DNA of 64,000 nt from a candidate division WOR-3 bacterium (GTDB lineage Bacteria; Hydrothermota; 32-111): positions 64,001 to 128,000 of the forward strand of contig JBBFKX010000003.1 in assembly GCA_037481815.1 (NCBI GenBank), given 5' to 3'. Shown piece after piece: positions 1 to 46,192 of the stretch. A program made the translations under genes and the position numbers. Every line of letters begins with the position of its first letter. The first letter of the stretch is position 1. The notes below the pieces were generated by a model that was given only the letters and a program-made list of their open reading frames with translations, made no database searches and had not been told where the DNA came from.

Positions 1-281
1 ACGAGTATATCGCCGAGTCTTTTTTTCGATTTTATTTCTTCCTGATATTCGAGAGCTTTTTCCAACTGTTCTTTTGTGATGTCGTTTGATTTTAACAGAA
101 GATTCCCGATCCTTTCCTCTCTGTTGACTATAGAACAATAAATTATTTTTCCATCCTTGAAAAATATATCACCAAAATTTTTCTTATCCGAAACACTCAA
201 AACTCCAGTTTTTCTTCCAAGAGAAAGTAACTGGATTATATCCGGCAAAGATGCTTCCTGTAAATTTCCCCTTATGGCCAT
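1..281 (-). CDS. DUF4388-domain protein with MshEN-like motif (runs off the window edge, 3' part missing)
   Basis: Not in the ORF track; translated by hand from ATG 281: MAIRGNLQEASLPDIIQLLSLGRKTGVLSVSDKKNFGDIFFKDGKIIYCSIVNREERIGNLLLKSNDITKEQLEKALEYQEEIKSKKRLGDIL. 'G.L....L.DIIQLL....KTG.L' is typical of DUF4388; 'RIG..LL....IT..QL..AL..Q......RLG' resembles MshEN. Confidence 0.75.
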   Translation of the reverse strand, partial: MAIRGNLQEASLPDIIQLLSLGRKTGVLSVSDKKNFGDIFFKDGKIIYCSIVNREERIGNLLLKSNDITKEQLEKALEYQEEIKSKKRLGDIL

Positions 282-283
282 TT

Positions 284-1942
284 TCAAACCTCAAACTCTA
301 CATACAACCTATCGGTATCATTTATCCACTCTTTAATCAATTTTGAAGAATCGAATCCACCTTTTTTAACAAACTCTCTCTTTTTGATCGTTCCAGATGG
401 GAAAATTTTCTTTATCAGTTCTTCGGTTATATTCGTTTCATATTTTTTCAATTCAAGAAAATATCTTTCTATCTCTGACAGCGGAGTAGTAACATAATCA
501 AGAAGGAAATTGAAAAGAAAATCGTTTATCTTGATTCCATATTTTAAAAGTAAATTTTTATACACATTCTTTTTTATAAAAAGTGATGTTGGCTGAATAT
601 TGTAAGAGGTGTATTTGTTGAACATATCGAGGATCTCTCTATCATCGATACTGAATTTTCTTTGTAGAGTTATTACTTTCACAACATTGTTTGATAAAAT
701 ATTCTTTATCACTGGAACGTTTTCTCTTTTTTCGTAGATCTTATCCAGATCATCGATCAAAACAAGATCCACCTCGTTTATAAATTTCATAACATAAAAA
801 TTGTTTGCAGCCTGCTGTATATTATTTCTGTTTATGAAGATAACCCTTTTATCAACCAAACTGTTAAAGAGTCCATTCAGAATATGCGTTTTTCCTGTTC
901 CAGGACTACCGGTTATCAAAACTATTTTATCAGTATTAACTCCATTGATTATTTCACCGATCTTATTTATAACCGATCTGTTAGAAGAATCTATAACAAA
1001 ATTGTTCAAATTCATCAGAATACTTGTTTCCTTTTCAAAAAAAGTAAAATAGTTTATTTTTTCTTTTAAAAGATCAATTTTTTCTTTCAAGATCTCGACA
1101 CGATCTGGATCAAAAAGCATCGATTCAATCTCTTGTGCTTCAGTTTTAAACTTTTTCACATTAAGAAGTCCAAACTCCTTATGTAATTCCATAAGTTTTT
1201 TTACATTCTCGGTAAACTTCTCAAACTCTTTTCTGATATAGCCGGTATCTTTTGAATTAATAACATTTTTAAGATGTTCAACGTTGAAGCCTTTCATCTC
1301 CCAGACATAAAGTTTTTCTATAAATTCCTCTTTACTTTCCTGCTCATCGAGTTTTTCTTCTACTCCTGCCTCCTGTTTTACCTGGGTTATGAAATCAACA
1401 AAGTTTATAAAATTGTTATTGATTTTCTTTTCCTTTATAAGGTTATATATTTTAAACTGTAATAAAAACTCCCTTATCCTCTCAATATTTTTTATTTCTT
1501 CAACTTTTTTTGATGATGTAATCAAAAGAAAAGTGTTCGACTTTAAACCCAAAAAAAGTTCCTCAACAAATTTTGAAAGTTCAGGATGTTTTTCTATATG
1601 ATCAAAATTTTTTACAAGGAGAATGTTTGCATAGGGAAAAATGTTTTTGTATTTGAGAAGGGTATCAGTTTTTTTTAGTTCAAAAATTTCTTTAAAATCA
1701 AGAACAAAAAGATAAAGTTCCCGAAACTTTCTTGAAAGATCAAAAAAAAGTTTATCAACAAATTCGTTTCCCGTTCCATCGTTAGAGTAAACTATTTCAA
1801 ATCTGCTTGTAAGATACCCAGTTGATAATGAATAGGAATACTCAGATTTTAAAAATGGATCTTCAGGTAAATTTTCTTTTACCGACTTGATACTAAAAAC
1901 TGTAAAATTTTCTTGAAATTCCTTTATATCATTTTGGTTCAT
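284..1942 (-). CDS. DnaA/Hda-family AAA+ protein with two ATPase-like modules and no DnaA DNA-binding domain IV
   Basis: C-terminal half: 'LNNFVIDSSNR', Walker A GSPGTGKTH, Walker B LVLIDDL. N-terminal half has a degenerate DnaA-like segment (ILLVKNFD...LLITSSKKVEEI). Confidence 0.65.
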   Translation of the reverse strand: MNQNDIKEFQENFTVFSIKSVKENLPEDPFLKSEYSYSLSTGYLTSRFEIVYSNDGTGNEFVDKLFFDLSRKFRELYLFVLDFKEIFELKKTDTLLKYKNIFPYANILLVKNFDHIEKHPELSKFVEELFLGLKSNTFLLITSSKKVEEIKNIERIREFLLQFKIYNLIKEKKINNNFINFVDFITQVKQEAGVEEKLDEQESKEEFIEKLYVWEMKGFNVEHLKNVINSKDTGYIRKEFEKFTENVKKLMELHKEFGLLNVKKFKTEAQEIESMLFDPDRVEILKEKIDLLKEKINYFTFFEKETSILMNLNNFVIDSSNRSVINKIGEIINGVNTDKIVLITGSPGTGKTHILNGLFNSLVDKRVIFINRNNIQQAANNFYVMKFINEVDLVLIDDLDKIYEKRENVPVIKNILSNNVVKVITLQRKFSIDDREILDMFNKYTSYNIQPTSLFIKKNVYKNLLLKYGIKINDFLFNFLLDYVTTPLSEIERYFLELKKYETNITEELIKKIFPSGTIKKREFVKKGGFDSSKLIKEWINDTDRLYVEFEV

Positions 1943-2544
1943 CTTTTATTTTTTTCAAATCTAGTTGTAAGATTCTTTATAACAGAAAACATCGACTCTT
2001 TGAGTGTTTCTAAAACACCTACTCCCTTCGTTGCAACCGACTCAAAACTCTTCCATTCGTTTTTAAGTTGAAGAGTCGTTTTTATGGTTTCAATATCAAG
2101 AGCTGTTGGAAGATCCCTTTTATTGTACTGAATAATGAGAGGAATATTTTCTATCGATAGATTGTTTTCCTTTAGGTTTATTACAAGATTTTCAAAAGAT
2201 TCTATATTATCTTCCATCCTATCAGCCTGTGAATCGATAACAAAGACAACTCCATCGGCACCCTGTAAAACGAGTTTTCTCGTTGAATCGTAATAAACCT
2301 GACCGGGAACAGTATAGAGCTGGAATTTTGCATTGAAGTTACCAATTTTGCCAACATCAAAAGGTAGAAAATCGAAAAATAAAGTTCTATCCATTTCGGT
2401 TGCAAGTGATGTCATCTCTCCCCTTTTGTCAGGTGGAATTTTACTGAATATGTATTGAAGGTTTGTTGTCTTCCCTGACCTTCCAGGACCATAATAAACT
2501 ATCTTACAGATTATCTCTTTTTTTGCATAATTTACAAGTGACAT
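1939..2544 (-). CDS. mglA: MglA-family small GTPase (motility/polarity)
   Basis: KIVYYGPGRSGKTTNL, DRTLFFDFLP, LYTVPGQV, NKRD motifs. Start moved to ATG 2544 (MSLVNY), which follows a GAGGT SD. Confidence 0.93.
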   Translation of the reverse strand: MSLVNYAKKEIICKIVYYGPGRSGKTTNLQYIFSKIPPDKRGEMTSLATEMDRTLFFDFLPFDVGKIGNFNAKFQLYTVPGQVYYDSTRKLVLQGADGVVFVIDSQADRMEDNIESFENLVINLKENNLSIENIPLIIQYNKRDLPTALDIETIKTTLQLKNEWKSFESVATKGVGVLETLKESMFSVIKNLTTRFEKNKR

Positions 2545-2551
2545 AATTACC

Positions 2552-3655
2552 TCAATCACCTTTTATCGTGTTGAAAACATCCGCATCGGTTGATTCTATT
2601 CCCCTTAACTTTAATTTGAACTCATCAACATTTGTAACCGATTGTATAGCGTCTTCATACGAAATGATTCCACTTTTGTACAATCTCATGATCGACTGAT
2701 CGAATGTATGCATCTGATACATCGAACCTTCTTCTATAGCTGTTGGGATAAGAAGTGTTTTTATCGGATCAAGGAGGTATTCTTTTATCGTTGGTGTATT
2801 TATCATAACTTCCGTTGCAGGAACTCTTCCCTTTCCATCGATTCTTGGAAGTAATCTTAAAGAGATAACCCCAACAAGTGTTGTTGCAAGTAGAACCCTT
2901 ATGTGTTGCTGCTGGTGTGGTGGATAGAATGATAAGATTCTGTTTATAGTTTCTGAAGCGTTCAGAGTATGCAGGGTTGAAAGAACAAGATGTCCAGTAT
3001 CTGCTGCTTTGATAGCGACATCCATAGTATCAACATCTCTTATCTCTCCCATAAGTATTATATCTGGATCCTGTCTTAGAACATGTTTCAAAGCACTCTC
3101 GTAAGAGTTCGTATCGTTACCAACTTCTCTTTGAGAGATAACGGACTTTTTATCTCTGAAAAGATACTCTATGGGATCCTCTATTGTGATGATATTTTTT
3201 GAATGGTTCTCATTTATGTATTCTATCATCGCAGCGAGTGTTGTCGATTTTCCTGAACCTGTCGTTCCAGTTGTAAGAATGAGCCCCCTCGGCTTTTCTG
3301 CCATCTCTTTTAAAACAGGTGGAAGGTTCAGTTCATCTATAGATTTTGCAGATATCGGTATCGTTCTCATCGCTATAGCAACACTTCCCCTCTGAAGGTA
3401 AACGTTTACCCTGAATCTTGATAAGCCAGCAACTCCTATCGCAAAATCGATCTCTTTTTTTGTTGCGAATTCTTCCTGTTGAGATTTTGTCATTATTTTT
3501 AAGGCAATATTTCTCAACTCATCCGGGCTCATCGGTTCTTCTTTTAAAATTTGCAATTTTCCATCTATCCTTAAAATCGGTGGAGTTCCCGCCTTCAGAT
3601 GAAGGTCTGATGCTCCGTCCTTTACCATTTTTTCAAGTAAAGCTTTCAATTCCAT
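2552..3655 (-). CDS. pilT: PilT/PilU-family type IV pilus retraction ATPase
   Basis: ASDLHL, Walker A GTTGSGKSTT, TIEDPIE, LRQDPD.ILMGEIRD, TGHLVLSTLH. The AIRNLIRE motif is absent, so it may be PilU-like. Confidence 0.88.
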   Translation of the reverse strand: MELKALLEKMVKDGASDLHLKAGTPPILRIDGKLQILKEEPMSPDELRNIALKIMTKSQQEEFATKKEIDFAIGVAGLSRFRVNVYLQRGSVAIAMRTIPISAKSIDELNLPPVLKEMAEKPRGLILTTGTTGSGKSTTLAAMIEYINENHSKNIITIEDPIEYLFRDKKSVISQREVGNDTNSYESALKHVLRQDPDIILMGEIRDVDTMDVAIKAADTGHLVLSTLHTLNASETINRILSFYPPHQQQHIRVLLATTLVGVISLRLLPRIDGKGRVPATEVMINTPTIKEYLLDPIKTLLIPTAIEEGSMYQMHTFDQSIMRLYKSGIISYEDAIQSVTNVDEFKLKLRGIESTDADVFNTIKGD

Positions 3656-3667
3656 ATTCTCTCCTTA

Positions 3668-4225
3668 TTATACTCTTTCAACATACTCGCCGGTTCTTGT
3701 ATCTATTTTTATTTTATCTCCAACATTCAAAAAAAGTGGAACTGTAACTCTAAGCCCTGTATCACAAACAGCAGGTTTACTACCACCAGATACAGTGTTC
3801 CCCCTAACTCCTGGCTCAGTTTCCACTATCTCAAGTTCAACAAAGATTGGTACTTCAATATCAATAACTCTATCACCAACAGAGAGTAAAGTAACATCCA
3901 TATTTTCTTTTAAATAGAATCTTTTTTCCTGCAATATATCTTCTGTCAAACTTATCTGCTCATATGTCTCATTGTTCATAAAAATATATTCTCCTCCATC
4001 TCTGTATAAAAATTGAAACGGATTCCTTTCAAGTTTTATCTCGTTCAAACTTTTTCCGGAATCAAAGGTCATATCGATGATATTACCATTTTCAAGATTC
4101 CGCAACTTCGTTCTCACGAATGCACCACCTTTACCCGGTTTAACATGCTGGAAATCGACAACGAGATAAATTTTACCTTCATATTCAAAAGCAAAACCTT
4201 TTCTAATATCAGCTGTTGTAGCCAT
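3668..4225 (-). CDS. efp: Translation elongation factor P
   Basis: HVKPGKGGAFVRTKL, PGVRGNT, VPLF...GD.IKIDTRTGEY. Confidence 0.97.
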   Translation of the reverse strand: MATTADIRKGFAFEYEGKIYLVVDFQHVKPGKGGAFVRTKLRNLENGNIIDMTFDSGKSLNEIKLERNPFQFLYRDGGEYIFMNNETYEQISLTEDILQEKRFYLKENMDVTLLSVGDRVIDIEVPIFVELEIVETEPGVRGNTVSGGSKPAVCDTGLRVTVPLFLNVGDKIKIDTRTGEYVERV

Positions 4226-4235
4226 TAAACCTCCA

Positions 4236-5648
4236 TCATTTTTTCTTTTGGTTTATAAATTTTATCCATTCTTGAAAATTCCCATCAAAAGAAGATTTTT
4301 CCTGTTTTTTTTCTTCAGTTTTGTTTTCATCATCCTGTTTCTTGATCTCGTAATCAACTTCTTTTTTTTCTTCTATTTTTTCTTCAGATTCCTTTTTCTC
4401 TGTTTCTTCTACAACGGTTTTATTTCCCATCTGTTCAACATTTTTTGTTTCAAATGCGACATTCTCTTCAAGGTTACCAAATTTTTTTTCGAAATCAACT
4501 TTTTCCTCTTCAGAAACATTTTCGAAAGATAAAGATCTGTTCAATTTTTCAATAAACTCGGCTCTATTTTCTTTTTTCTCACCCTCATCACTTTTGAACA
4601 TTTCTTCGTCAACTTCCTCTTTTATCATGAGTTCTCTAAGGGTTCTTATCTTTTCTGCATATCTTTCCTCATCGGGATTCTGACGAAGAAGAGTTTGGTA
4701 AATATCTATCGCTTTTTCATACTTTTTCTGTTCAACATATATGTTGGCCATCTCTTCTGAAAAGTACAGAAACCTTTTTGTTCCACTCAACTCATAAGGA
4801 ATAATCTTTTCCTCTTTCTTATCTTCCTTTTTTATGAACGGATCAACATCCTTTTTAATGAATTTTTCTTCATCGATTATTCCAACACCTTTTTTTTCTG
4901 TGGTTTCATCTTTCTCTGTATTATCAGTGTTAATTTTTTCCTCTTTTGTAAAAGTGAAAGAAGTTTTTGAATGTTCTAAAACCATTTCCTTGTCTTCTTT
5001 TGTTTCAACCTTTTTCTCTTTTTCCACTTGTTTTTCATTTTTAGTTTGTTCTTTTTTCTCTTCCTTTTTTTCTTCCTCGTCAAAACTTATCACATTTGAG
5101 GAATGCTGGATGATAAAGTCATCAACTATTTTTTTCTCTTCGAAAGCATCTTTTTGAACAACTTCTTTCTTTTCTTCCTCTTTTTTCTTTAAAAGTTTTT
5201 CTTTTTCTTCTTTTATACGATTTTCCTCCTCAATTTTTCCTCTGATTATCTTCAACTCCCTTTTCGCATCTTCGTTAAGAGGATCAAGGAAAAGAATCGT
5301 ATCGTAAAGTTTTAAGGCCTCCTGTAAGTTACCTTCCCTTTTTTTTATTTCAGCGAGTTCAGAAAAAGCAACTATGTTCTGAGGATCAAGTTTGATAACC
5401 TTTTCAAAATTTTTTGAAGCGTTAACAAAATCTTTTTTTTCTTTCAGAGCTTTTCCATAAAGAATAAGTGCTGAAACATTGTCAACATTGTATCTCAGCC
5501 CCTCTTTTAAAACGGCAAGAGATTCATCAACCATATTTACTTTTAAATAAATGTTTGCAAGTTTAATAAAAGATTTAGATTTAGGATTCCTGGAAATATC
5601 TTCAAGTAATTCTTTTATCTCTTTTTCATACATACTGTAAGAGTTCAA
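4236..5648 (-). CDS. TPR-repeat protein with long charged (E/K-rich) linkers
   Basis: N-terminal TPRs (A..LYGKAL...DFVNASKNFEKVIKLDPQN) and a further TPR (MANIYVEQKKYEKAIDIYQTLLRQNPD). Start set at TTG 5648 after GGAGG; the track start at 5711 lies upstream of the promoter. Confidence 0.75.
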   Translation of the reverse strand: MNSYSMYEKEIKELLEDISRNPKSKSFIKLANIYLKVNMVDESLAVLKEGLRYNVDNVSALILYGKALKEKKDFVNASKNFEKVIKLDPQNIVAFSELAEIKKREGNLQEALKLYDTILFLDPLNEDAKRELKIIRGKIEEENRIKEEKEKLLKKKEEEKKEVVQKDAFEEKKIVDDFIIQHSSNVISFDEEEKKEEKKEQTKNEKQVEKEKKVETKEDKEMVLEHSKTSFTFTKEEKINTDNTEKDETTEKKGVGIIDEEKFIKKDVDPFIKKEDKKEEKIIPYELSGTKRFLYFSEEMANIYVEQKKYEKAIDIYQTLLRQNPDEERYAEKIRTLRELMIKEEVDEEMFKSDEGEKKENRAEFIEKLNRSLSFENVSEEEKVDFEKKFGNLEENVAFETKNVEQMGNKTVVEETEKKESEEKIEEKKEVDYEIKKQDDENKTEEKKQEKSSFDGNFQEWIKFINQKKK

Positions 5649-5679
5649 AGTTCCTCCGTTGAGATTCTTTAAAATAAAA

Positions 5680-5708
5680 ATTATAATTAAAATATATAAA
5701 AGTGTCAA
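5680..5708 (-). promoter_or_regulatory. Consensus sigma70 promoter of the TPR-efp-pilT-mglA operon
   Basis: TTGACA(5708-5703)-17 nt-TATAAT(5685-5680). Confidence 0.8.
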
Positions 5709-5721
5709 CAACTCTTTTTCA

Positions 5722-5750
5722 TTGATTTTTTGTTTATAATTTAATATAAT
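5722..5750 (+). promoter_or_regulatory. sigma70 promoter, probably giving a leaderless mRNA
   Basis: TTGATT(5722)-17 nt-TATAAT(5745-5750); 6 nt separate it from ATG 5757; no SD. Confidence 0.6.
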
Positions 5751-5756
5751 TTAATA

Positions 5757-6101
5757 ATGAAAAGAATCATTCTTGTTGAAGACGATCTCGACATAATTGA
5801 ACTTTTACTCGATGTTCTTTCAGACAAATATCAGATCTTTTATGAAACAAATGTTGAGAACTTTTTTAAACGTACAGATATAGAAACTTTTGACCTTATC
5901 ATTACCGACTATCTTCTCGACAAATATTCAGCGAAAGATATATTAGAAAAGTATGTTCATAAAAAAATTCTAATAATTTCTGCATTATCCATTACATCAC
6001 AGGAGATTTCAAGATTTGTTGACAATAAAAGAGTTTTCTATCTACAAAAACCTTTTCTTATCGATACTCTTATTTCAACGGTTGATAAAATTATAACTTG
6101 A
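5757..6101 (+). CDS. Single-domain response regulator (CheY-like receiver)
   Basis: ILVEDD, DLIITDY (phosphoacceptor Asp), ISA, LQKPF. Confidence 0.85.
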   Translation: MKRIILVEDDLDIIELLLDVLSDKYQIFYETNVENFFKRTDIETFDLIITDYLLDKYSAKDILEKYVHKKILIISALSITSQEISRFVDNKRVFYLQKPFLIDTLISTVDKIIT

Positions 6102-6729
6102 ATTTTTCAAAACTTTTTAAAGTTTCAAGATATTCTTCACCTTTTAACATACTTTTAAAATGGTCAAGTGATAAAAAGAGATAAATCAATGCAAAAATTA
6201 TAGCCATCCCAACATATACTGTAGGGTACTTTTGAAAATAAAGGATCAAAGGAAAGAGTGTAAAAAGTATTAAACCCAAAAGAGCAGGCCTTTTCATTAT
6301 TGGTGTTAAGATCAAAAAGATGAAAAGGTATGAAATCAGGATTTCCGGAAATAACGCAAGAAGTACTCCTAATGTTGTTGCAAGCCCTTTTCCTCCCTTA
6401 AAATTTAAAAATATAGGAAAAATATGTCCCAAAACAGATATTACTCCTGCAAAAATCAGTAGGAGATCTTTTTGTGAAAAATTTTCCGGAAGAATTTTTT
6501 TTACTACGATAACAGATATAGCACCTTTGGAAATATCGAAAATCAAAGTTAAAACACCGATAAATGTTCCTCCCTCGATTAAAACATTTGTCGCTCCTAT
6601 ATTTTTTCTTTTTCCCTCTTTTCTTATATCTCTTCCTGTTTTCAACTTATAGAATACATATCCAGACGGAAAAGAACCAATAAGGTAAGAAAGAATCAAA
6701 AATAAGATAAGATAGAGATACACTTGCAT
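6091..6729 (-). CDS. plsY: Glycerol-3-phosphate acyltransferase PlsY
   Basis: YLIGSFPSG, NIGATNV, DISKG, GHIFPIFLNFKGGKGLAT. Confidence 0.92.
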   Translation of the reverse strand: MQVYLYLILFLILSYLIGSFPSGYVFYKLKTGRDIRKEGKRKNIGATNVLIEGGTFIGVLTLIFDISKGAISVIVVKKILPENFSQKDLLLIFAGVISVLGHIFPIFLNFKGGKGLATTLGVLLALFPEILISYLFIFLILTPIMKRPALLGLILFTLFPLILYFQKYPTVYVGMAIIFALIYLFLSLDHFKSMLKGEEYLETLKSFEKFKL

Positions 6730-6744
6730 TTATTCTCTTATTGT

Positions 6745-6777
6745 AAAAAAAGAGGGCTTTTTTAAAAGCCCTCTTTT
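6745..6777 (-). terminator. Intrinsic terminator after pilQ
   Basis: Hairpin AAAAGAGGGCTTTT/AAAAGCCCTCTTTT followed by a T tract on the minus strand. Confidence 0.8.
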
Positions 6778-6783
6778 ATCTTT

Positions 6784-8385
6784 TTATTTTATATCCCTTA
6801 TTATGTGTGGAGTGATGAAGATCAAAACTTCTTTGTTATTTTTTGTAGATATATCCCTTTTGAAAAGATTACCCAAAATCGGTATAGCCCTTAAAATTGG
6901 TATTCCACTTTCAGATCTCTGATCCTCTGTAAGGATGAAACCACCCATCACAACAGTTTCACCATCTGAAACCATCTGAACAGTTTTTGCCTGTGTCTTA
7001 TTTATTATTGGCTGTCCACCAGCATCAGCGGTAACAGTCGAAAGTTCCGCTTCTATTTCAAGAGTTATATCCTCTGCTGAGTTTACATGTGGTATCACAT
7101 TCAAAATTGTTCCCACTGTATATTTTGTATAATTAACTGTTCCATCAGTGTTTATAGTCGTTAGGAAAAATTCCTTTCCACCAAGAATATTCGCCTGTGT
7201 ATTGTTGGTTGTGGTTATCCTTGGATTTGAAACAGTTTTTGATTTTCCAACGACCTCAAGTGCATCGAGACGTGCGCTCAACTGTCCAAAATCTCTTGTT
7301 GTTCCTATTGTCACGGTTCCGGCTGTCATACTTGAAGGATCAACCCCTGGAATTCCTCCACCTATCGTCACCTGATTTATTCCCACATTGTTCAATGTCC
7401 ATGATATTCCAAGTTCTTTTGAATCGTTCAACTGGATCTCAACAACTTTTACAACGATTTCTACCTGGAGGTTTTTCTTATCCAGATCCTCTATAATACC
7501 CTGTATTCTGTTCTGAACATCCTGAATATCTTTCACGATTATCGAGTTTGTTCTTTCATCTATCGTTATGATACCTCTTTTCGATAGAACAGGTCTTAAA
7601 GAATTCTGTAAAATTTTTGGATTCGCAAATTCAAGTTTATATACCGTTGTTATCAAAGGTAACGCATCCTGCATCGCTGTTTGTTCGGATGAGAACTCTT
7701 TGTATGTTCCCACCCTTATCATATTTGGATACTCCTGATAGGTTAGTCCTGCTAACCTTGTTACCATATCAAAAATGTCTTTCCATGGAACATCTTTTAC
7801 ATGGATCGTGACTCTTCCGGTCACAGAACTTGATATTACAAGGTTTACTCCAACATAATCAGCGATTCCTCTTAACAGCGTCACAACATCAGCGTTTTCA
7901 ACATCGAGTGAGATCAAGAAATCTGAATTCTTTGATGTTACACCACCAGATTGTTCTTTGGATGTTGGTTTAGCGTTTGACGCTTTCCATACAGGGATAT
8001 CAGTGTTTACATTTTTATTCAGTTGAATAACGATATCGTTACCTTTATACTCCTTTGAATAAGCATACTTATCATCAGTTTCAATCATAACCCTTAAAAA
8101 GTTGGTCTCATAGTCCTTTATGATCTCAAACGAAATAATCCCTGAACCGTTGTTAACCTTATAGTATCCTCCATTTAATCCATTGTCTATACCTATAAGA
8201 TCGATAACGATCATGTTTGGTGAAGTTATCGAAAAATCTGTAAAATTGGCAACTTTATCAAGTGAAAATCTTATCTCCGTTTTTCCATTTTCAGTGTTAA
8301 CCGTTATATCGTTGAGAAGCCCAAGGGAAAAAGCTGAGATGGAGAGAAGAAAGACAAAGGACAAAATAAAAATTCTCTTAACCAT
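6784..8385 (-). CDS. pilQ: Type IV pilus secretin PilQ
   Basis: Signal peptide, AMIN-like N-terminus, N0/N3 domains (ISLDVENADV, IDERTNSIIV), secretin motif GIPILRAIPILGNLFK...LIFITPHII; last gene of pilMNOP. Confidence 0.92.
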   Translation of the reverse strand: MVKRIFILSFVFLLSISAFSLGLLNDITVNTENGKTEIRFSLDKVANFTDFSITSPNMIVIDLIGIDNGLNGGYYKVNNGSGIISFEIIKDYETNFLRVMIETDDKYAYSKEYKGNDIVIQLNKNVNTDIPVWKASNAKPTSKEQSGGVTSKNSDFLISLDVENADVVTLLRGIADYVGVNLVISSSVTGRVTIHVKDVPWKDIFDMVTRLAGLTYQEYPNMIRVGTYKEFSSEQTAMQDALPLITTVYKLEFANPKILQNSLRPVLSKRGIITIDERTNSIIVKDIQDVQNRIQGIIEDLDKKNLQVEIVVKVVEIQLNDSKELGISWTLNNVGINQVTIGGGIPGVDPSSMTAGTVTIGTTRDFGQLSARLDALEVVGKSKTVSNPRITTTNNTQANILGGKEFFLTTINTDGTVNYTKYTVGTILNVIPHVNSAEDITLEIEAELSTVTADAGGQPIINKTQAKTVQMVSDGETVVMGGFILTEDQRSESGIPILRAIPILGNLFKRDISTKNNKEVLIFITPHIIRDIK

Positions 8386-8393
8386 TTATTACC

Positions 8394-8972
8394 TCACTTT
8401 TTTTTCTTTGTATCAACAGTTTTAACCAATTTGATCACTTTATTTCTGACGACTCCATATTCATCCAACTTAAAGATCACAGAGTCCTGTTCTATTTTTA
8501 AAAGAATACCATTTTTTATCTTCTGTCCCTCATAAAATATGAACCCAAGCCCAGAAGCATCTTTCAACAAAGCAAGTTTTCCGTTTTTTCCTTTGATCAT
8601 TCCATAATACATTGCACTTTCAATATCGATCTGTACTTTTCCATCCCTCTGCTGTTCAAGTATTGAGACGAAAGGATCATTCTTTGTCTTTGTTTTGAAT
8701 GTGTATGTTTCAATAGTAAAAGGAAGTGCTGAGGTAGTATCGTATGGTAAAGAATCAATAACTTGCTCTTCTATATCAGTTTTTACAACATTCGTGTCAG
8801 TTGTTGAAACGATATTCTCTGTTGCTTTCACATCCTTTTTAGAGGTCAGGGCATTCGATGATTTTTCAATCGCTGAATTCACAGGATTGCCTCTTGAACA
8901 GGAGATCAAGAAAAATAGAACGATCATAATTGAAAAAAGAAGGGTTGATTTACTATTTTTTCTTTTTAACAT
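8394..8972 (-). CDS. pilP: PilP-like lipoprotein
   Basis: Lipobox LISC, 'NDPF' motif, G.I..I....V beta domain; lies between pilO and pilQ. Confidence 0.7.
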   Translation of the reverse strand: MLKRKNSKSTLLFSIMIVLFFLISCSRGNPVNSAIEKSSNALTSKKDVKATENIVSTTDTNVVKTDIEEQVIDSLPYDTTSALPFTIETYTFKTKTKNDPFVSILEQQRDGKVQIDIESAMYYGMIKGKNGKLALLKDASGLGFIFYEGQKIKNGILLKIEQDSVIFKLDEYGVVRNKVIKLVKTVDTKKKK

Positions 8973-9546
8973 TTTTACCTTCCTCTGTTTTTGTTTGGGC
9001 TCCTGGACCTTTATAGTAAGTTGACAAAGTTAGCACAGTTTGAATCGTACTGAGATTTTCATCAGGATTTTTTAAAGGTTTAATCGAAATACTGTTAACC
9101 TTCGTTATCCTTTTCTGGTTTCCCATATCCGTTAAAAACAATCCAAGAGAAGAAAAATTTGAGTTGAGTGTTATTTCATGGTTGATACTTGCATACTCGT
9201 TTGTCACTGATACATTCAAAGGTTTTATGTTCATTATTTTTACATTATTTTTGTTGGCATAAACGGTTAAACTGTCAAGAGCATCTTCAAGTAGTTGTGA
9301 ATCTGGAAGCATTTTGTTTGCGATTTTCAACTGATTTTCAAGTACCTTTAACCTTTTCGTGTACTCAACCAAACTTGCTGCAACCTTTCTTGCTTCATTA
9401 ACCTGAGTGTTCAGTTTATCGTTTTCAGCTTTAAGTTGAGAAATGGTTTTTGAATTTTTTGAATAATCAAATTTCCAGTATAGAAAGAGGATCGCTATCA
9501 GAACAACGACGGTTATTATAGTTTTTATTAAATTATTTTTTTCCAT
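8953..9546 (-). CDS. pilO: Type IV pilus alignment protein PilO
   Basis: TM helix plus coiled coil, 'MLP', 'F..LG.FL..M.N..RI..V'; synteny. Confidence 0.88.
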   Translation of the reverse strand: MEKNNLIKTIITVVVLIAILFLYWKFDYSKNSKTISQLKAENDKLNTQVNEARKVAASLVEYTKRLKVLENQLKIANKMLPDSQLLEDALDSLTVYANKNNVKIMNIKPLNVSVTNEYASINHEITLNSNFSSLGLFLTDMGNQKRITKVNSISIKPLKNPDENLSTIQTVLTLSTYYKGPGAQTKTEEGKNVKKKK

Positions 9547-9555
9547 CTGCCACCC

Positions 9556-10134
9556 CTATTTTTTGTAGGTACAATTTATTTCAAAAGAGATTATATCGTA
9601 GCCACCCTCTGGTTTGTTAACAATATCCTTTAAAGTGAAGTTATCAAAATATTCTGTTTCTTTTTTCAGATTTGTTAAAAGATCGGTTATCATAAGGTTT
9701 GAAAAAGTTTTTCCTTTCAAAATTAACCTTTTATCTTTTACGGTCAATTCTTCGAGCCAGACATATTCAGGTAAAAGTTGGTTTATTTTATCAAGAAGTT
9801 GAGCATAAGCAAATTTTCCAGATATAAGATTTTTTATTGTTTCCATTTTGGCATTTATTTCACTCTCTTTCTGTTTCATCTTTTCAACCTTCGCAACCTC
9901 TTCCTGTAATTTTTTAAGTTCATTCTGTTTTTCAGTTATTTTCTTCTTTAACTGGTTTATCTGCCCAACCTGAGAGAAATGTATTATAAAAATAATGATG
10001 AAGAGGAGAACCGCAACACCAATTGAAACAAAAAATCCGAGATTAGTCGGGATCTTGATACCGATTTTTGGTATTCCACCCTCACTCTTCTTTCGCTTTC
10101 TTTCCTCTTCTGGTAGTAAATTTATCTCTATCAT
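9556..10134 (-). CDS. pilN: Type IV pilus alignment protein PilN
   Basis: N-terminal INLLP PilM-binding motif, TM helix, LPEYVWL. Confidence 0.92.
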   Translation of the reverse strand: MIEINLLPEEERKRKKSEGGIPKIGIKIPTNLGFFVSIGVAVLLFIIIFIIHFSQVGQINQLKKKITEKQNELKKLQEEVAKVEKMKQKESEINAKMETIKNLISGKFAYAQLLDKINQLLPEYVWLEELTVKDKRLILKGKTFSNLMITDLLTNLKKETEYFDNFTLKDIVNKPEGGYDIISFEINCTYKK

Positions 10135-10147
10135 CTTTACCTCTCTT

Positions 10148-11176
10148 TTAAGGATTTCTTAAACTCAAACCTATTGAGGGAACAAGTAACGGTGATATTT
10201 TTTCAACTTCTTCAAGAGTCAGAAGACCTTCTTTGATTTTTACTTTTCTGAAAGGATCAAGTTTTTCGACATTGATTTCAAACCTGTTTTTAAAATAATC
10301 GAGAATTTCAGGTCCATTCGCTCCACCGCCTGATATAAAAATTTTATCTATCTTCTCCCTGTTTGTGAATGGGATAGCCCTTTCTATATGGGTACAGAGT
10401 TCATCGTAGAACGACTCAAGACCTTCTTTAATCTTATCCTCAGAAATCTCGTTTAAAGTTTCTCCTTTGAAAACTTTATCGAGTTGGTCTTTTGTTATTC
10501 CGGGAATCTTCTGCAATAACGACTTTATCGCAGTTGTAACATCTCTTGTGAAAAGATTGTTTGTTCCATCAATAAAACTCAATATTGTGTTCTCATAACC
10601 GATATGAACGAGAGTAACTATCTCATTTGGAACTGGATCATAGTTCGCTTCAAAGCAATTCTGGATTGTGAACGCTGGTACATCGATAACACAGGGGTTA
10701 AGTTCCATATCCTTAATGAGTGTAACAAATGGATAGAGTATCTCTTTTTTCGCAGCTACGAGCAAAACATCGACTTTTCCCTGTTCTTCAGAAGGTCCTA
10801 AAACTTTGTAATCAAGTTGAACATCCTCAATACTGTATGGAATATTCGTTTCTGCTTCCTGTCTTACCATAATCGAGAGTTCACTATCCTTCATCTGATC
10901 CATTTTTAACTTTTTAACTATAACACCTCTTCCGATCAAAGCACACGAAACATCCTTTTCTTTCACATCCCTTGATACCAAAAGATTTTTTACAGTGTCG
11001 ACCAATTGCAACCTATCCATTATTTCACCATCGGCGATTGCAATATCGGAAAGTTCTGAGAAACCAAAATCCTTCAATACCGGTTCACCTGAAGAAAGAT
11101 CAATGATTGAGTATTTTATAAACGAACTTCCAATGTCGAGACCAAGATAAGTTTTTTTTCTTTTTTTAAAAGCCAT
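10148..11176 (-). CDS. pilM: Type IV pilus assembly protein PilM (actin-like)
   Basis: LGLDIGSSFIK, IPY...V.LDY, VLLVAAKKE, ISGGGA, IGLSLR. Confidence 0.92.
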   Translation of the reverse strand: MAFKKRKKTYLGLDIGSSFIKYSIIDLSSGEPVLKDFGFSELSDIAIADGEIMDRLQLVDTVKNLLVSRDVKEKDVSCALIGRGVIVKKLKMDQMKDSELSIMVRQEAETNIPYSIEDVQLDYKVLGPSEEQGKVDVLLVAAKKEILYPFVTLIKDMELNPCVIDVPAFTIQNCFEANYDPVPNEIVTLVHIGYENTILSFIDGTNNLFTRDVTTAIKSLLQKIPGITKDQLDKVFKGETLNEISEDKIKEGLESFYDELCTHIERAIPFTNREKIDKIFISGGGANGPEILDYFKNRFEINVEKLDPFRKVKIKEGLLTLEEVEKISPLLVPSIGLSLRNP

Positions 11177-11188
11177 AAAACCACCTTT

Positions 11189-11374
11189 TTATCCTTCAAT
11201 AAATTTTTTTATTTCCCTTCCTTCTATGTACCACTTTTTCCCTATCTTTTTTCCTTTCAGAAGTTTCATCTTTAAATGTTTTCGAACCGTCTGTTCGGTA
11301 ACATTTAAAATCTCAGCAACCTCTGATACTGTATACAATTTGTTTTCATCTATCTGTGATGGAATGACTGCCAT
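11189..11374 (-). CDS. Small Xis/MerR-like (HTH_17, BldC-like) DNA-binding protein
   Basis: 61 aa, LYTVSEVAEILNVTEQTVRK...G.L.G.KIGKKWYI; GAGGG SD; ends 12 nt before the pilM start. Confidence 0.85.
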   Translation of the reverse strand: MAVIPSQIDENKLYTVSEVAEILNVTEQTVRKHLKMKLLKGKKIGKKWYIEGREIKKFIEG

Positions 11375-11423
11375 ATATCCCTCTTTTTGTATTTTTTTGT
11401 GTTTTTATACATACTTGTATATA

Positions 11424-11451
11424 TTTATACACATTTTATCCACAATGTCAA
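11424..11451 (-). promoter_or_regulatory. sigma70 promoter of the HTH-pilMNOPQ operon, overlapped by DnaA boxes and 10-bp repeats
   Basis: TTGACA(11451-11446)-16 nt-TATAAA(11429-11424); TTATCCACA at 11436-11444 and TTATACACA at 11425-11433. Confidence 0.6.
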
Positions 11452-11602
11452 TAGGTTAAAACCATTTTTAAGATTTTTTTGTAAGTGTCAATTTGTTTAT
11501 AATTTTAACAAATAACTTTTATTCGAAAACACTTTTCAATAAAAGACCCTAAAAGATTATAAAAATTTTTATAAAGATCTAAAAAATTTGTTTCTGCTAA
11601 AA

Positions 11603-11611
11603 TGTGGATAA
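11603..11611 (-). promoter_or_regulatory. Consensus DnaA box
   Basis: TGTGGATAA on +, i.e. TTATCCACA on -. Confidence 0.5.
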
Positions 11612-11666
11612 CTTTTTTCTTGATATTTTTTCAATTTTTTCTAAAATGTTAAAAAGGGGTAATTTT

Positions 11667-12119
11667 ATGGAAAAAGAAAAAATCTATGTAGAGGTAATTG
11701 AAAAGATAAAAAGAATAGAAGGAAAAGATAAAAGAACAGTTTTGAAAAAAATAACAGAGATCCTTCAGGAGAGTTTCAAAGATTTTGATTGGGTTGGATT
11801 TTATCTCGTTGAGGATGGAAAACTCATACTTTCTGAGTTTGTCGGTGAACCAACAGTACATACAAAAATAAATTTTGGAGAAGGGATATGTGGACAGGCA
11901 GCTGAAAGTCAAAAAACCTTTATAGTGCAGGATGTTTCAAAAGAAAAGAATTATCTTTCATGTTCTCCAAAAGTGAAATCTGAAATCGTTGTACCAATTT
12001 TTAAAGATCAAAAAATCGTAGGAGAACTTGATATAGATTCACACACGCTAAACGCTTTCGATGAAATCGATAAAGAAAATCTTGAAAAGATATGTAAATA
12101 TCTTGAAAAACTTTTTTAA
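11667..12119 (+). CDS. msrC: GAF-domain protein, free methionine-(R)-sulfoxide reductase (MsrC/YebR) family
   Basis: DWVGFYL, G.GICGQAA, YLSCS...KSEIVVPI, GELDIDS. Start ATG 11667 after AGGGG. Confidence 0.75.
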   Translation: MEKEKIYVEVIEKIKRIEGKDKRTVLKKITEILQESFKDFDWVGFYLVEDGKLILSEFVGEPTVHTKINFGEGICGQAAESQKTFIVQDVSKEKNYLSCSPKVKSEIVVPIFKDQKIVGELDIDSHTLNAFDEIDKENLEKICKYLEKLF

Positions 12120-12697
12120 TAGATCACAGAATCAAGGTAAAAAAATCTTTCATCTTTTTTGAATCCAACTATTCCATTTTCAAAGTTTAAAATGAAACTA
12201 TAAACTAAGGTTGTTTCTTTCTGTTCAAGGTTCATAACAATTTTTATCGTAACAAAGTATGATGAATCATACTTTTTGTTTTTATACTCAAAAGTTTTTA
12301 CAGAATCGACCCTACAAAGGTATTTATATTTAAAATCGTTATTTTCATAAGTTTCATAAGTTTTTTGATCCTTTAATAGATATGTTGGAAAAAATGGTAT
12401 ATCAAAATAGAATCCTTCGAAAAAAATCCTTTTATACTCAAAATCTCCAAAATGGTAGAAAAAATTTTCTTTCTCATCAAAATTGTATCTTTTATATTTA
12501 AGTCCCTCTATTATCGTATCACCCGTAAACTGGATGGTTGAGATGTTGTTCTGTTGATCTGAATAGTATCTTATGGTATATTTTGTCTCCTCCATTAAAA
12601 AACTTCCACCTGTTTTCTCCACTATATCATAATCAAGATTACAGTTAGAATTGAGTAAACAAAATACTAAGATCAAAAGTAAAACTATCTTTTCCAT
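12116..12697 (-). CDS. Hypothetical exported protein / lipoprotein
   Basis: 193-aa ORF with a hydrophobic signal ending in Cys (LLNSNC) and a beta-rich body. Confidence 0.55.
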   Translation of the reverse strand: MEKIVLLLILVFCLLNSNCNLDYDIVEKTGGSFLMEETKYTIRYYSDQQNNISTIQFTGDTIIEGLKYKRYNFDEKENFFYHFGDFEYKRIFFEGFYFDIPFFPTYLLKDQKTYETYENNDFKYKYLCRVDSVKTFEYKNKKYDSSYFVTIKIVMNLEQKETTLVYSFILNFENGIVGFKKDERFFYLDSVIY

Positions 12698-13208
12698 TTA
12701 TAATTTTCTCCCTTGAATATCCAAAAGAAATTCCCCAGAAAGATTCAAAAAAGTTATAAAAAAATTTTATTGAAGGTGATAAGAATTCACAAAAACCCCT
12801 TTCAACATAATCGTAATCTCTTTTCTCTATTAAAGAGATACCGATATTCGTAAAAAAATCAATTCTATAACTATTTCTGCTAACGAGATGAAAAGTGTAT
12901 CCTGTTCCAAGATTTAAAAAATTAACACGATATGTTTCTTTATAAGTTTTAAAGGAAAAGAGTTCTCCGTTTAAAGAAAAAGAAAAATTTTTAAAGTTTA
13001 GTGTTTGATAATCTATTTTTAAACCGTTACCATTTCTCAAATAGTATGACCACTCACCGAAAGGAATTTTTGTTGTAAAAGAAATTTCAAGATCTTTCGA
13101 AAAAACTTTTGTATCAGCAAAGAAAAAGAATAAAAAAACAAGTAAAAAAATTTGGGCGAAACAGGATTCGAACCTGTGACCTCCTGCTTGTAAGGCAGGC
13201 GCTCTCAC
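12645..13208 (-). CDS. Putative small outer-membrane beta-barrel protein; start uncertain, overlaps tRNA-Val
   Basis: Hydrophobic signal-like stretch IFLLVFLFFFFA, amphipathic beta strands, C-terminal Phe. The only ATG/GTG/TTG in frame between the tRNA promoter and the signal stretch are TTG 13211 and GTG 13208. Confidence 0.45.
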   Translation of the reverse strand: MRAPALQAGGHRFESCFAQIFLLVFLFFFFADTKVFSKDLEISFTTKIPFGEWSYYLRNGNGLKIDYQTLNFKNFSFSLNGELFSFKTYKETYRVNFLNLGTGYTFHLVSRNSYRIDFFTNIGISLIEKRDYDYVERGFCEFLSPSIKFFYNFFESFWGISFGYSREKIINGKDSFTFDLSILFTQF

Positions 13209-13226
13209 CAACTGAGCTATCCGCCC
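13153..13226 (-). tRNA. tRNA-Val(UAC), CCA not encoded
   Basis: GGGCGGATAGCTCAGTTGGTGAGAGCGCCTGCCT-TAC-AAGCAGGAGGTCACAGGTTCGAATCCTGTTTCGCCCA folds into a full cloverleaf. Confidence 0.97.
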
Positions 13227-13242
13227 TTTTTTAAAGAAAGGT

Positions 13243-13271
13243 ATTATATTTATTTTTTTTGATTCAGTCAA
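13243..13271 (-). promoter_or_regulatory. sigma70 promoter of tRNA-Val
   Basis: TTGACT(13271-13266)-17 nt-TATAAT(13248-13243). Confidence 0.8.
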
Positions 13272-13280
13272 CATAAATCT

Positions 13281-14591
13281 TTACCTCAGATCAGTAAAAT
13301 CACCTTTACAAACTTCAACTGTGCCCTCTTTTATAATTTTTTCAATCCTGTATGCACCCATCGTCGGAGCTCTCATATAACCATCCCATGCTGCTTCTGC
13401 ATATCTTCCACTTTCAAGAACATAGAAGAGCCAGTCGTTAACATATTCAGGTTCATCCTGAGCAAAACCTGATCCTATGTGTGTTAACCATCTCTGGTTG
13501 AAATGTTCATGTGCCCCAACTGGAGGTGCTATGATTACTGGAAGGCCCAATGCAGTATAAAAAGATAACTCTGAAGGTTTTGTCCATATGATATCAACAT
13601 TTCTTAGTTCTCTGTTGAAAGTTTCAAAATATGACATTTTTGATCTTTCAAAAATTATTTTTACATTCTCGTTTTTGTTTAAAAAAATTTTTTCAAGTTC
13701 AATTTCAAAATAATTTTTTACATCCTCTCTTATCCCCGCCACAAGAATCACCTTAACTTTTCCATCTTTTATTTTATCTCTCAAGGAATTCACTATCTTA
13801 ATGCCAATATCTTTTTGAGCACCAGCACCTCCAACCATATAACATATAGTTAAAGGTCTTTCAACTTTAGAAGGTATTTGCCCAAGATATTTTTCGATAA
13901 TATCTTTATAAACACTTATAAACCTTTCTTTAGGATCAAGCACTTTTATTCTTTTTAAAAGATCCTCTTTCAAGATTTCCTGATTTTCACCTATATTCTC
14001 TTTTGGTAACGGAAAACCTGTGATAAAGATATTACAACTATCAACACCATATTTCAAAAGTCTCATCGAAGCGTGCCTTGTCGGAGTTAAAAATTTAATT
14101 TTAGATTTTTTTGGATCATCTGCAACCCACACTCGGTTGATATCAGTATCGGTTATGATTGAAAAAATTTTTTCAAAACCATTGTAATCTGCAGCAAGAG
14201 ATGGAATGAAATGTGTTGTTATTATAGGTATATCTTTTTCTTTTAGATGTTCAAGCAATTCTTTACAAAGCCCCATCTTCACGAGTGTCTTTAAAAAATA
14301 AACATTTCCATTTGGATTTTCCAGTTTGTTAAAAGGATAAAAAGGTGAAATAGATTGCAACTTATCATAAATATTGAATATAGAACTTCCAATAAAAGGA
14401 ATGTTTTTGGCTCTTGAGACAGCTTCATAACCGGATTGTGATGCTCTCCAAAGAAATCGTTCTTTCCAATTTGAAACATAATCAGTGTTTGCCGTCAATA
14501 TTTTTTCTTCCGCAATATCCTTTAAGGGATAAGCGGCCCTCTGATGCCCATACCCCATATCAACAGATAGAACCCATGCTTTTTTTTCCAT
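13281..14591 (-). CDS. GT-B fold glycosyltransferase-like protein (MGDG synthase/UgtP-like)
   Basis: SVDMGYGHQRAA, IITTHF, ITGFP, VGGAG, D.IWTKP, P.GAHE..N. Confidence 0.6.
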   Translation of the reverse strand: MEKKAWVLSVDMGYGHQRAAYPLKDIAEEKILTANTDYVSNWKERFLWRASQSGYEAVSRAKNIPFIGSSIFNIYDKLQSISPFYPFNKLENPNGNVYFLKTLVKMGLCKELLEHLKEKDIPIITTHFIPSLAADYNGFEKIFSIITDTDINRVWVADDPKKSKIKFLTPTRHASMRLLKYGVDSCNIFITGFPLPKENIGENQEILKEDLLKRIKVLDPKERFISVYKDIIEKYLGQIPSKVERPLTICYMVGGAGAQKDIGIKIVNSLRDKIKDGKVKVILVAGIREDVKNYFEIELEKIFLNKNENVKIIFERSKMSYFETFNRELRNVDIIWTKPSELSFYTALGLPVIIAPPVGAHEHFNQRWLTHIGSGFAQDEPEYVNDWLFYVLESGRYAEAAWDGYMRAPTMGAYRIEKIIKEGTVEVCKGDFTDLR

Positions 14592-45100: not shown

Positions 45101-46192
45101 TCCAATAAGTTTTTCAGTTAACTCATCAATACAGAGTTCCCCAAGATCGCTCTCAACCATGATTCTCGCTGAAACATTTACTCTATCGCCCAATACAGTG
45201 TATGTCGACCTCAGTTTAGAACCGACGTACCCAGCATAAACTTTTCCATAAGTCAATCCACATTTGATCTGGTTTCTATAAGGATCAAGTTTTTTGTCAT
45301 AAAAAAGATTTATCCCTCTTAAAAGGTCATTTTCAAAACTTTTTGGTGCTCCAAATATTATAAAAACTTTACCTCCCTTATCCCCAAAATCGATTAAATT
45401 AAAATAACCTCTATACTGCATGGTGAGTTCAAAAAGAGTGAGAAAAAATTCTTCATAATCCTTCTCTTCAAGTTTATCGAATGATACGAATAAAGATGCT
45501 ACATCCCTGAATTCTCCGATAAATTCTGTTGGGAGTTCTACAGTTGAGAATCTTTTCATCTCTTTTTCATCAAAATTTTTTCTTTCAAAATCCATGTTAG
45601 AGTTTAAAATTTTTTCTCTGTTTAAATACCTGTAACCATTCTCAAAATGTATAAAAAGATTTTCATCAAAAAATTTTTTTGCTTCATATGAAAAATACGA
45701 ATCGTTTTCTCCACAAAGTTTTTCCATCTGTGCAGCAACATTGATTGGATTTCCTTTAAAAAAGTAAATTTTTTTATCCTTTCCCAAAATCGACCATTCA
45801 ACATCTCCAAATGAGACTCCTATTTTTACTGATAAAATGAAATCTCCGTTCAATGTTTGTATTTTACCGTTATCGTTTGAAAATTTTAAAATCGAACCTA
45901 TAATCAGAAGTAAATTTTCTTTTTTATCTTTTTTTAATATTCCAGTAAATGCGTCCCCAGCAAAATTTAAAACATCTCCACCATATTGGTAAACAATTTT
46001 AATCAGTTCACCAAAGAAAAAATTTATTATGTCTGAAAGTGTTTCACTCCCTTTAACATCGTCTCTCATGAGATTTTCTGTCAGTCCTGTAAAACCTTTT
46101 ATATCTACAAAAAAAACAAAAAATTCATCACTCCCTTTAAAACTCTGTTTTTCTATTTTTTCAAGGACTATATCAGGTACTACTTTAAACAT
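42192..46192 (-). pseudogene. Class III adenylate/guanylate cyclase + STAND NTPase + TPR protein, split by a -1 frameshift near 44012-43976 (ORFs 43976-46192 and 42192-43928)
   Basis: ORF1: FVDIKGFT, FAGDA, DFGDKG, YTVLGDRVNVSAR, GDAGVGKTR, VDDLQ, GNPFFVEQ, ARIDRL. The ORF2 frame is open from 44012 and continues the domain (LIFKHSLIRDSVY, then TPRs). Could be an assembly error. Confidence 0.75.

Follow-up and report, generated by a model that had tools for sequence, protein, structure and literature searches.

Conserved linkage of MglA-family GTPases, a tandem DnaA-derived AAA+ protein, a PATAN protein and chemotaxis adaptation enzymes in candidate division WOR-3 bacteria

A gene string joining mglA, a AAA+ gene and che genes

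We analysed a window of 64,000 nucleotides from a candidate division WOR-3 bacterium (C3:64001-128000; contig C3 belongs to a 1.58-Mb, 20-contig, 95%-complete assembly), the first 5,708 positions of which a first-pass annotation had read as a candidate six-gene operon for type IV pilus polarity. All six genes are present, all on the minus strand, and their identities hold in family scans: in order from the promoter, they encode a tetratricopeptide repeat (TPR) protein, elongation factor P (EF-P), a PilT/PilU-family ATPase, an MglA GTPase, a AAA+ protein and a protein with a DUF4388 (PATAN) domain. The tight spacing that had been described is also real: 10, 12 and 7 nt separate the first four genes, and the remaining two junctions are 4-nt ATGA overlaps of start and stop codons, which suggest coupled translation. 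The proposed promoter, a sigma-70 consensus (TTGACA-17-TATAAT; 5680..5708, minus), is the only 12/12 match in positions 1-12000, and the same sequence stands 5′ of the TPR gene in a relative of the same genus (L036) and in one from another genus of the same family (L037). As a class, promoter-like sites occur at chance level (47 found versus 42.2 ± 6.7 in shuffled sequences).

The six genes do not form a self-contained operon. The sixth is cut by the window edge, and the six together open, at its upstream end, a string of more than 20 genes that all run in the same direction. To the left of the window, on the same strand and mostly overlapping, the string continues through cheR, cheD, cheB, a gene for a 281-aa TPR protein and a gene for a 245-aa protein with a cheW domain, and the che part belongs to the conserved core described below. 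These genes are followed by pgpA, cinA, ligT, recA and a gene labelled recX by position only. The che labels of the string agree with a Pfam check, and a terminator scan of the string found no convincing terminator within it.

Domain make-up of the core proteins

The AAA+ gene (284..1942, minus) encodes a 552-aa P-loop protein, and its start overlaps the stop of the GTPase gene, mglA2, as ATGA. The protein is a tandem: a degenerate N-terminal AAA+ module that has lost Walker A and box VII (aa 1-170, 1433-1942), a helical middle domain assigned to no Pfam family (aa 176-312, 1007-1417) and a C-terminal AAA+ module with the Walker A motif GSPGTGKT (aa ~320-500, 443-985). In first family scans the only named match was a sub-threshold one to Hda (TIGR03420, 47.2 bits versus a cut-off of 194.8), covering just 97 residues; PF00308, the model of DnaA domain III, gave 25.2 bits versus a cut-off of 23. 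When 30 homologs were combined into a profile (alignment A1), its N-terminal half matched DnaA domain III chains at E values of 5e-43 to 1e-32, and its C-terminal half matched DnaA domain III again (2hcb), along with DnaC, DnaI and Hda-type chains. DnaA domain IV was matched neither by the A1 profile nor, as PF08299, in the AAA+ gene, and a profile search with A1 in a word-indexed database returned no further relatives besides ordinary DnaA. The protein resembles DnaA and Hda in that both AAA+ modules of its family match DnaA domain III, but differs in the duplication of the AAA+ region, the helical domain between the copies, the absence of domain IV and a motility and chemosensory rather than a replication context.

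Conservation is uneven between the two modules. The C-terminal Walker A is kept in 28 of the 30 family members, a strict N-terminal Walker A in seven and a box-VII-like SRxxGG in ten. Both N-terminal features are absent from all 13 members of the 552-559-aa type, the window protein among them (0/13 in the window's family, another departure from DnaA and Hda), and the SRxxGG motif of the N-terminal module is kept in homologs outside that family. In one family a form of 384 aa occurs that lacks the C-terminal AAA+ module. In an AlphaFold2 model of the window protein (pLDDT 82), the decayed N-terminal module is still predicted to be an alpha/beta domain, and Foldseek with the full model retrieved only p97/Cdc48-type tandem AAA+ proteins, a result that, for a predicted structure, confirms two AAA+-like folds and nothing more.

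The best-conserved part of the protein is the middle 110-130 residues, with invariant W, K, L, E, L and P. Pfam scans of 18 middle-domain segments gave chance-level matches only, Foldseek against the PDB gave nothing at E ≤ 0.001, and the leads from the ESM Atlas, to archaeal hypothetical proteins, all stayed below threshold (best score 0.89). A wide VIA-align search peaked at Z scores of 7.2, 7.0 and 6.7 (a helix-antibody construct, Embp and EbhA), below the meaningful level for helical proteins. Searched as a profile against 1.84 billion representatives, an alignment of the middle domain (A2) retrieved 375 proteins at E ≤ 0.001, 176 at 1e-10 and 75 at 1e-30. Many of the proteins carrying this domain are large, with up to 25 tandem copies (3090 aa), and they join it to DUF835, KaiC-like or DnaA-type ATPase domains and to zinc ribbons; one is named as coming from a Thermoplasmata archaeon, a single name on which the taxonomy of the repeat proteins rests. 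By these profile matches, the middle domain belongs to an undescribed helical repeat family that has no Pfam model.

At its C-terminus (284-330, minus), the AAA+ protein has an acidic, variable linker and, in most members, a short conserved tail, which reads ..DRLYVEF.. in the window's family and ..ELIEENY, ..EVWEEY or ..RIFEDY in others. A flexibly linked tail of aromatic and acidic residues resembles the C-terminal CheR/CheB tethers found on some chemoreceptors; cheR and cheB themselves come two to four genes after the AAA+ gene.

Canonical DnaA was sought separately. No canonical DnaA C-terminal domain (PF08299) and no strong Bac_DnaA match were found in this assembly. The domain is present in 244 of the 272 genomes of the phylum, including all 13 other genomes of the window's family, which also carry the AAA+ gene; in one other family (f14) it was found in 0 of 12 genomes. 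Because all 13 family genomes have it, the gap here is most likely an assembly gap, probably at or near the origin, and the AAA+ protein is most likely an extra paralog beside canonical DnaA. We considered the AAA+ protein as this organism's own DnaA and dropped that assignment, as the canonical domain and the AAA+ gene coexist in all 13. Public records name the homologs variously as 'DnaA/Hda family protein', 'chromosomal replication initiation ATPase DnaA', 'DUF815 domain-containing protein' and 'EcfA2', names that are likely to mislead automated annotation.

MglA2 (1939..2544, minus; listed as 1939-2559, with the likely start at 2544) matches Myxococcus xanthus MglA chains at E 1.7e-67 and Thermus thermophilus MglA at 2.3e-66. 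In the alignment to M. xanthus MglA, its P-loop reads GPGRSGKT, which fits GxxxxGK[ST], and its DRT aligns with the M. xanthus DRT, placing an intrinsic arginine beside the G2 threonine, the criterion for Group-1 MglA proteins in Wuichet and Sogaard-Andersen 2014. The G3 motif TVPGQ and the G4 motif NKRD are present and are invariant in 28 aligned homologs. An mglB gene within four genes is typical of Group 1, though not obligatory; the window's string, including the part left of the window where the first-pass annotation had proposed to look for Roadblock genes, contains none. Instead, mglB lies on contig C2 beside a second gene, mglA1, whose product is 61% identical to MglA2, and mglA1-mglB abut a gene for a methyl-accepting chemotaxis protein (MCP). 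Among 31 distinct MglA sequences encoded near the AAA+ gene, 22 have arginine at the fourth P-loop position (GPGR/GAGR), and the other nine read GTGLCGKT, at least seven of which have an mglB match between mglA and the AAA+ gene. Some GTPases use an arginine at that P-loop position as an internal catalytic finger. A complex prediction for the AAA+ protein with MglA2 (alignments A1 and A3) scored 0.00 against a mark of 0.32, a value that counts neither for nor against binding.

The sixth gene begins in the window (3..287, minus; first 95 aa) and ends to its left (L004:12683-14287). Its full-length product has 534 aa and comprises a PATAN domain, interrupted by an MshEN-type insert, and then C-terminal TPRs; against a cut-off of 25 bits, PF14332 scored 128 on the whole protein and 73.4 on the part inside the window. 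The protein gave no Response_reg match, so a PatA-type receiver was not found, and its C-terminus consists of TPR repeats. Residues 56-113 align to the N-terminal, c-di-GMP-binding domains of the ATPases PilF of T. thermophilus (9e-9), PilB of Geobacter (1.8e-6) and MshE of Vibrio cholerae (4e-4). The insert holds two near-copies of a 24-residue motif which, read by eye, match the relaxed published MshEN motif at 9/11 and 10/11 positions. The published motif is likewise 24 residues long. Unlike MshE, PilF and PilB, the WOR-3 protein carries the domain within PATAN rather than at an ATPase N-terminus, its spacer has 7 residues, not the published 5, and in both copies Asn replaces the conserved Gly10. 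From its domain composition, the PATAN protein is likely a cyclic di-GMP (c-di-GMP)-sensing adaptor.

Conservation of the module and its genomic setting

AAA+ matches at E ≤ 1e-5 occur in 113 of the 272 phylum genomes, the weakest few covering only the generic P-loop region. From the best matches we hand-picked 20 loci spanning 16 families, in related genomes that are not independent of one another. The PATAN gene directly follows the AAA+ gene in all 20; cheR comes next in 18, and the full cheR-cheD-cheB series is found in 17. The direct upstream neighbour of the AAA+ gene is mglA in 11 loci, mglB in seven (with mglA just before or close by) and neither in two. A second survey, a pattern scan with the middle-domain alignment that took one genome per species, yielded 46 loci, partly overlapping the 20. 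The PATAN gene follows the AAA+ gene in 39 of them, four are cut by contig ends and three have no PATAN gene; MglA and/or MglB lie upstream in 39. The linkage of mglA, the DnaA-like AAA+ gene and the DUF4388/MshEN gene that had been proposed from this one sequence therefore extends across the sample (AAA+-PATAN in 20/20 and 39/46 loci, MglA or MglB upstream in 18/20). Five of the 46 loci are in genomes that are not among the phylum's 272 and so appear to lie outside the phylum; four of these five have mglB-mglA, AAA+, PATAN, cheR-cheD-cheB and TPR genes, with an MCP gene in three. The conserved core thus consists of mglA or mglB, the tandem AAA+ gene, the PATAN/MshEN/TPR gene and cheR-cheD-cheB-TPR.

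Distribution across the phylum is nested within that of MglA. The families with no MglA match (f9, f18, f28, f29 and f30) also have no AAA+ match (0 of 29 genomes), and in family tallies the AAA+-positive families are a subset of the MglA-positive ones. Most genomes with the AAA+ gene show two MglA matches.

The genes on either side of this core vary. In other families the order is accB, pilT, accC, a thiE-like gene, mglA, AAA+, PATAN, cheR-cheD-cheB, TPR, an ExeA-like AAA_22 ATPase gene, cheW, MCP, cheW, pgpA and cinA. The ExeA/GspA-like AAA_22 ATPase (~270 aa), between the TPR and cheW genes, was seen at L042:12945-13778 and also at L041, L044, L049 and L055, and is missing from the window's family. 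In the window, the string opens with the TPR protein of ~470 aa (4236..5648, minus; listed open reading frame 4236-5711), which has N-terminal TPRs, a Lys/Glu-rich low-complexity stretch and one further TPR (Pfam TPR_2, TPR_19 and others); like the other TPR proteins of the locus, it matches generic TPR models only. Homologs begin at the residue that corresponds to the TTG at 5648, which follows GGAGG, so translation most likely starts there. We rejected the listed TTG start at 5711, which overlaps the promoter, as an artefact, and with it the hydrophobic N-terminus of the listed reading frame, which is a translation of the promoter region. The first-pass annotation had placed this gene in the operon, but tblastn across the 20 loci matched it only in the window's own family, f1 (L036-L038 and L040).

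The EF-P gene (3668..4225, minus) is identified by TIGR00038 (244.6 bits versus a cut-off of 185.8) and encodes all three domains (EFP_N, EFP and Elong-fact-P_C). As efp adjoins the module in only 4 of the 20 loci, all from the window's own family, we regard it as a housekeeping passenger and not, as first suggested, a member. Elsewhere accB and accC take its place, with pilT between them. An efp-accB-accC order is familiar from other bacteria.

The window copy of pilT (2552..3655, minus; TIGR01420, 462.4 bits versus a cut-off of 319.1) is a second paralog, since a separate pilB-pilT-pilC cluster lies on contig C2. PilT proper, the retraction ATPase, has an AIRNLIRE-type helix near its C-terminus; read by eye from unaligned sequences, the window paralog has TIKEYLLD where the C2 PilT has AIKALIRD. 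A pilT gene is nearby in 11 of the 20 loci, but in eight of these 11 housekeeping genes come between it and the next module gene. In six these are accC and the thiE-like gene, in front of mglA; in L054 it is accC by itself, again in front of mglA; and in L051, where mglA is missing, accC stands before the AAA+ gene. Overall, the link of the pilT paralog to the module is loose.

Upstream of the six genes, and ~1.1 kb from them as measured to the end of pilQ at 6784, lies pilM-pilN-pilO-pilP-pilQ, the type IVa pilus alignment and secretin genes (6784..11176, minus; Pfam PilM_2, PilN, PilO and Secretin/AMIN, with pilP labelled by position only and without a family match), in agreement with the earlier estimate of about 1 kb. 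The interval holds a hairpin, plsY and a divergent receiver-like gene. The hairpin, found in a scan for terminator-like sites, is a 13-bp palindrome with T/A runs between pilQ and plsY (6748..6777). The divergent gene (5757..6101, plus) encodes a stand-alone receiver-like protein of 114 aa, with PF00072 at 26.9 bits, below the cut-off of 30.2, and adjoins the module only in same-genus relatives.

Counted over the whole assembly, there are one CheA, three CheW domains and four MCP genes, and the Che set is complete, with CheR, CheD, CheB and CheW in the string and CheA, CheY, CheC, CheW and MCP on C2. The flagellar FliG_C domain was not found in this 95%-complete assembly. On C2, the CheA cluster runs MCP-cheW-cheY-cheA-cheC-TPR (902 aa)-PATAN (371 aa)-(TPR+Roadblock)-Roadblock-Roadblock-TPR, and it ends just before rplM-rpsI (C2:170001-190000, minus, 874-14044 of that stretch). 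All three places that have che or MCP genes also carry MglA, Roadblock or PATAN genes. The genome has five GGDEF genes.

Further signalling genes lie elsewhere in the window. At 43976-46192 (minus), a 738-aa protein combines an adenylate/guanylate cyclase domain with a AAA_16 (STAND-like) ATPase; its gene stands beside one for a 578-aa TPR_12 protein (42192-43928, minus) and upstream of a sigma-54 activator and kinase pair. At 33048-35664 (plus), the gene for a B12-binding-domain protein precedes one for a hybrid histidine kinase that carries a receiver domain, and the two proteins may form a cobalamin- or light-linked sensor pair.

A candidate chemosensory route to type IV pili

We propose that the locus probably encodes a chemosensory and MglA polarity module with c-di-GMP input, controlling type IV pili. 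Receptor arrays would signal via the genome's single CheA, with the CheR, CheB and CheD of the string adapting the arrays, and the signal would pass to an MglA/MglB polarity switch through PATAN, Roadblock and TPR proteins, with no flagellar motor. MglA-GTP and the PATAN adaptor would then set where and when type IV pilus motors act. The MshEN insert of the adaptor would provide the c-di-GMP input, and its PATAN domain would be expected to contact the pilus motor, as cyanobacterial PATAN contacts PilB1 and PilC. The AAA+ protein may serve as an ATP-dependent oligomeric scaffold or switch of the complex, with its helical middle domain and conserved C-terminal tail as putative docking surfaces.

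Elements of such a pathway are known from Frz with MglA/MglB and SgmX in Myxococcus, from Tax/Pix with PATAN-REC proteins in cyanobacteria and from Pil-Chp in Pseudomonas, as far as the accessible descriptions go. The likeness to M. xanthus (MglA/MglB, RomR-RomX, Frz, SgmX, FrzS and SopA) extends, by those descriptions, to a Group-1 MglA with an Arg finger and TVPGQ, an MglB Roadblock partner (here elsewhere in the genome), a Che-type pathway joined to the GTPase, TPR proteins at the locus and a type IV pilus as the likely output; they contain no counterpart of the WOR-3 AAA+ protein. Unlike in M. xanthus, the che genes share one string with mglA, and the lineage is WOR-3, not Myxococcota. In cyanobacterial Tax/Pix systems with PATAN-REC (PatA-type) proteins, the accessible accounts describe the same PATAN helical insert, Che-like genes and linkage to type IV pili, with PATAN as the output that binds PilB1 and PilC. 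A Synechocystis preprint reports yeast two-hybrid binding of PATAN domains to PilC and to the N-terminal domain of PilB1, and describes the helical insert as also present N-terminally in ATPases of pili and of type II secretion systems. The WOR-3 PATAN domain differs in being fused to TPRs, without a receiver, and in lying beside MglA/MglB and a DnaA-like ATPase. MglA also acts on type IV pili outside Myxococcus, in T. thermophilus and Bdellovibrio, and the Bdellovibrio MglA, like MglA2 of the window, is an orphan relative to mglB; unlike the WOR-3 string, these systems are presented in the accessible sources without a DnaA-like ATPase or che genes in the string.

Several observations weigh against this proposal. 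The string also carries efp, pgpA, cinA, ligT and recA, plainly unrelated housekeeping genes, so co-direction alone means little; housekeeping genes likewise separate pilT from the module in most of the loci where it is nearby; and cheA and cheY lie away from the window's string. MglA-bearing families without the AAA+ gene are numerous (f7, f12, f13, f16, f19 and others), and MglA function as such therefore does not require that gene; a few AAA+ homologs occur apart from the module (L104, L115 and L116), and the shared ancestry of the sampled loci lowers the weight of their number. For the c-di-GMP input, the NCBIfam model NF053729 scored 36.1 bits on the cut piece of the PATAN protein, just under its cut-off of 38, and by eye each motif copy matches 8 of 11 strict positions and departs at three. 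Finally, it is from gene identities, domain make-up, conserved linkage and the phyletic nesting of the AAA+ gene in MglA-bearing families that we infer every protein contact, ligand binding and output.

The strongest competing explanation, which we judge unlikely, accepts the module as real and gives it another function, either of the pili (for example in adhesion, DNA uptake or entry into biofilms) or in a polarity process independent of pili, for example at the division site or in development. Attachment decisions typically take a c-di-GMP input, a developmental regulator was the protein in which PATAN was first described, and the link from module to motility is one that we infer. The cinA-recA genes later in the same string are a further point in its favour, but they are a common housekeeping pair. 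Against it, MglA with PilT and Che-type adaptation enzymes is best known, in the accessible literature, from surface motility, and pilMNOPQ lies 1.1 kb from the six genes.

It is improbable that the arrangement is without functional meaning, with compact genomes keeping long same-strand strings and genes being neighbours by descent only. The interleaved housekeeping genes, the chance-level occurrence of terminator-like and promoter-like sites and the common ancestry of the relatives would agree with this, but the flanks vary by family (efp versus accB/accC around pilT, mglA versus mglB, MCP genes present or moved) and the core order is kept throughout, including in four genomes outside the phylum; the 4-nt start/stop overlaps, with the coupled translation that they suggest, also speak against it. 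A role of the AAA+ protein in replication, as a paralog of DnaA or Hda that merely neighbours motility genes, is very improbable: the DnaA/Hda names in public annotation, the profile match to DnaA domain III at E 5e-43 and the missing canonical C-terminal domain in this assembly are set against the lack of domain IV, the 47 bits for Hda (cut-off 194.8), the canonical DnaA_C of 244/272 phylum genomes and of all 13 other family genomes, which carry the AAA+ gene as well, and the fixed position of that gene beside mglA/mglB and the PATAN gene.

Returning to the chemosensory polarity module, we advance one further and tentative proposal, possible though doubtful as a whole: that the AAA+ protein is a new partner of the MglA/MglB switch, a nucleotide-driven oligomeric scaffold or polar landmark that couples Che adaptation enzymes and a c-di-GMP-sensing PATAN adaptor to the pilus motors. 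A replication-initiator ATPase would then have been repurposed for polarity, and its middle domain would represent a new family of repeats that also occurs in archaeal proteins of very large size. Searching the literature for MglA/MglB together with DnaA or AAA+, we did not find a tandem DnaA-derived ATPase with a middle domain as a fixed module member, most subscription journals and the neighbour table of PMC4316618 lying outside that search; nor did a search for WOR-3 or Stahlbacteria with MglA, pili or chemotaxis find a fusion of the module with cheR-cheD-cheB across the phylum. The earlier view that the combination lacks a functional description agrees with these searches, but its novelty is narrower than supposed: that MglA genes are occasionally near PATAN genes is already in print in the accessible text, as is the co-occurrence of PATAN proteins with SgmX.

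Work on MglA-based polarity has centred almost exclusively on Myxococcus, Bdellovibrio and Thermus, and the chemosensory route to type IV pili is largely unknown outside Pseudomonas and cyanobacteria. In one string, conserved throughout an uncultured phylum and reaching outside it, the module offers a candidate answer that brings together Che adaptation enzymes, an adaptor of c-di-GMP type and a GTPase or its GTPase-activating protein. It also draws attention to a helical repeat domain that is undescribed and to a mis-annotation that is systematic. Its unexpected component, a DnaA-derived double ATPase publicly named as a replication protein, gives specific, testable partners.

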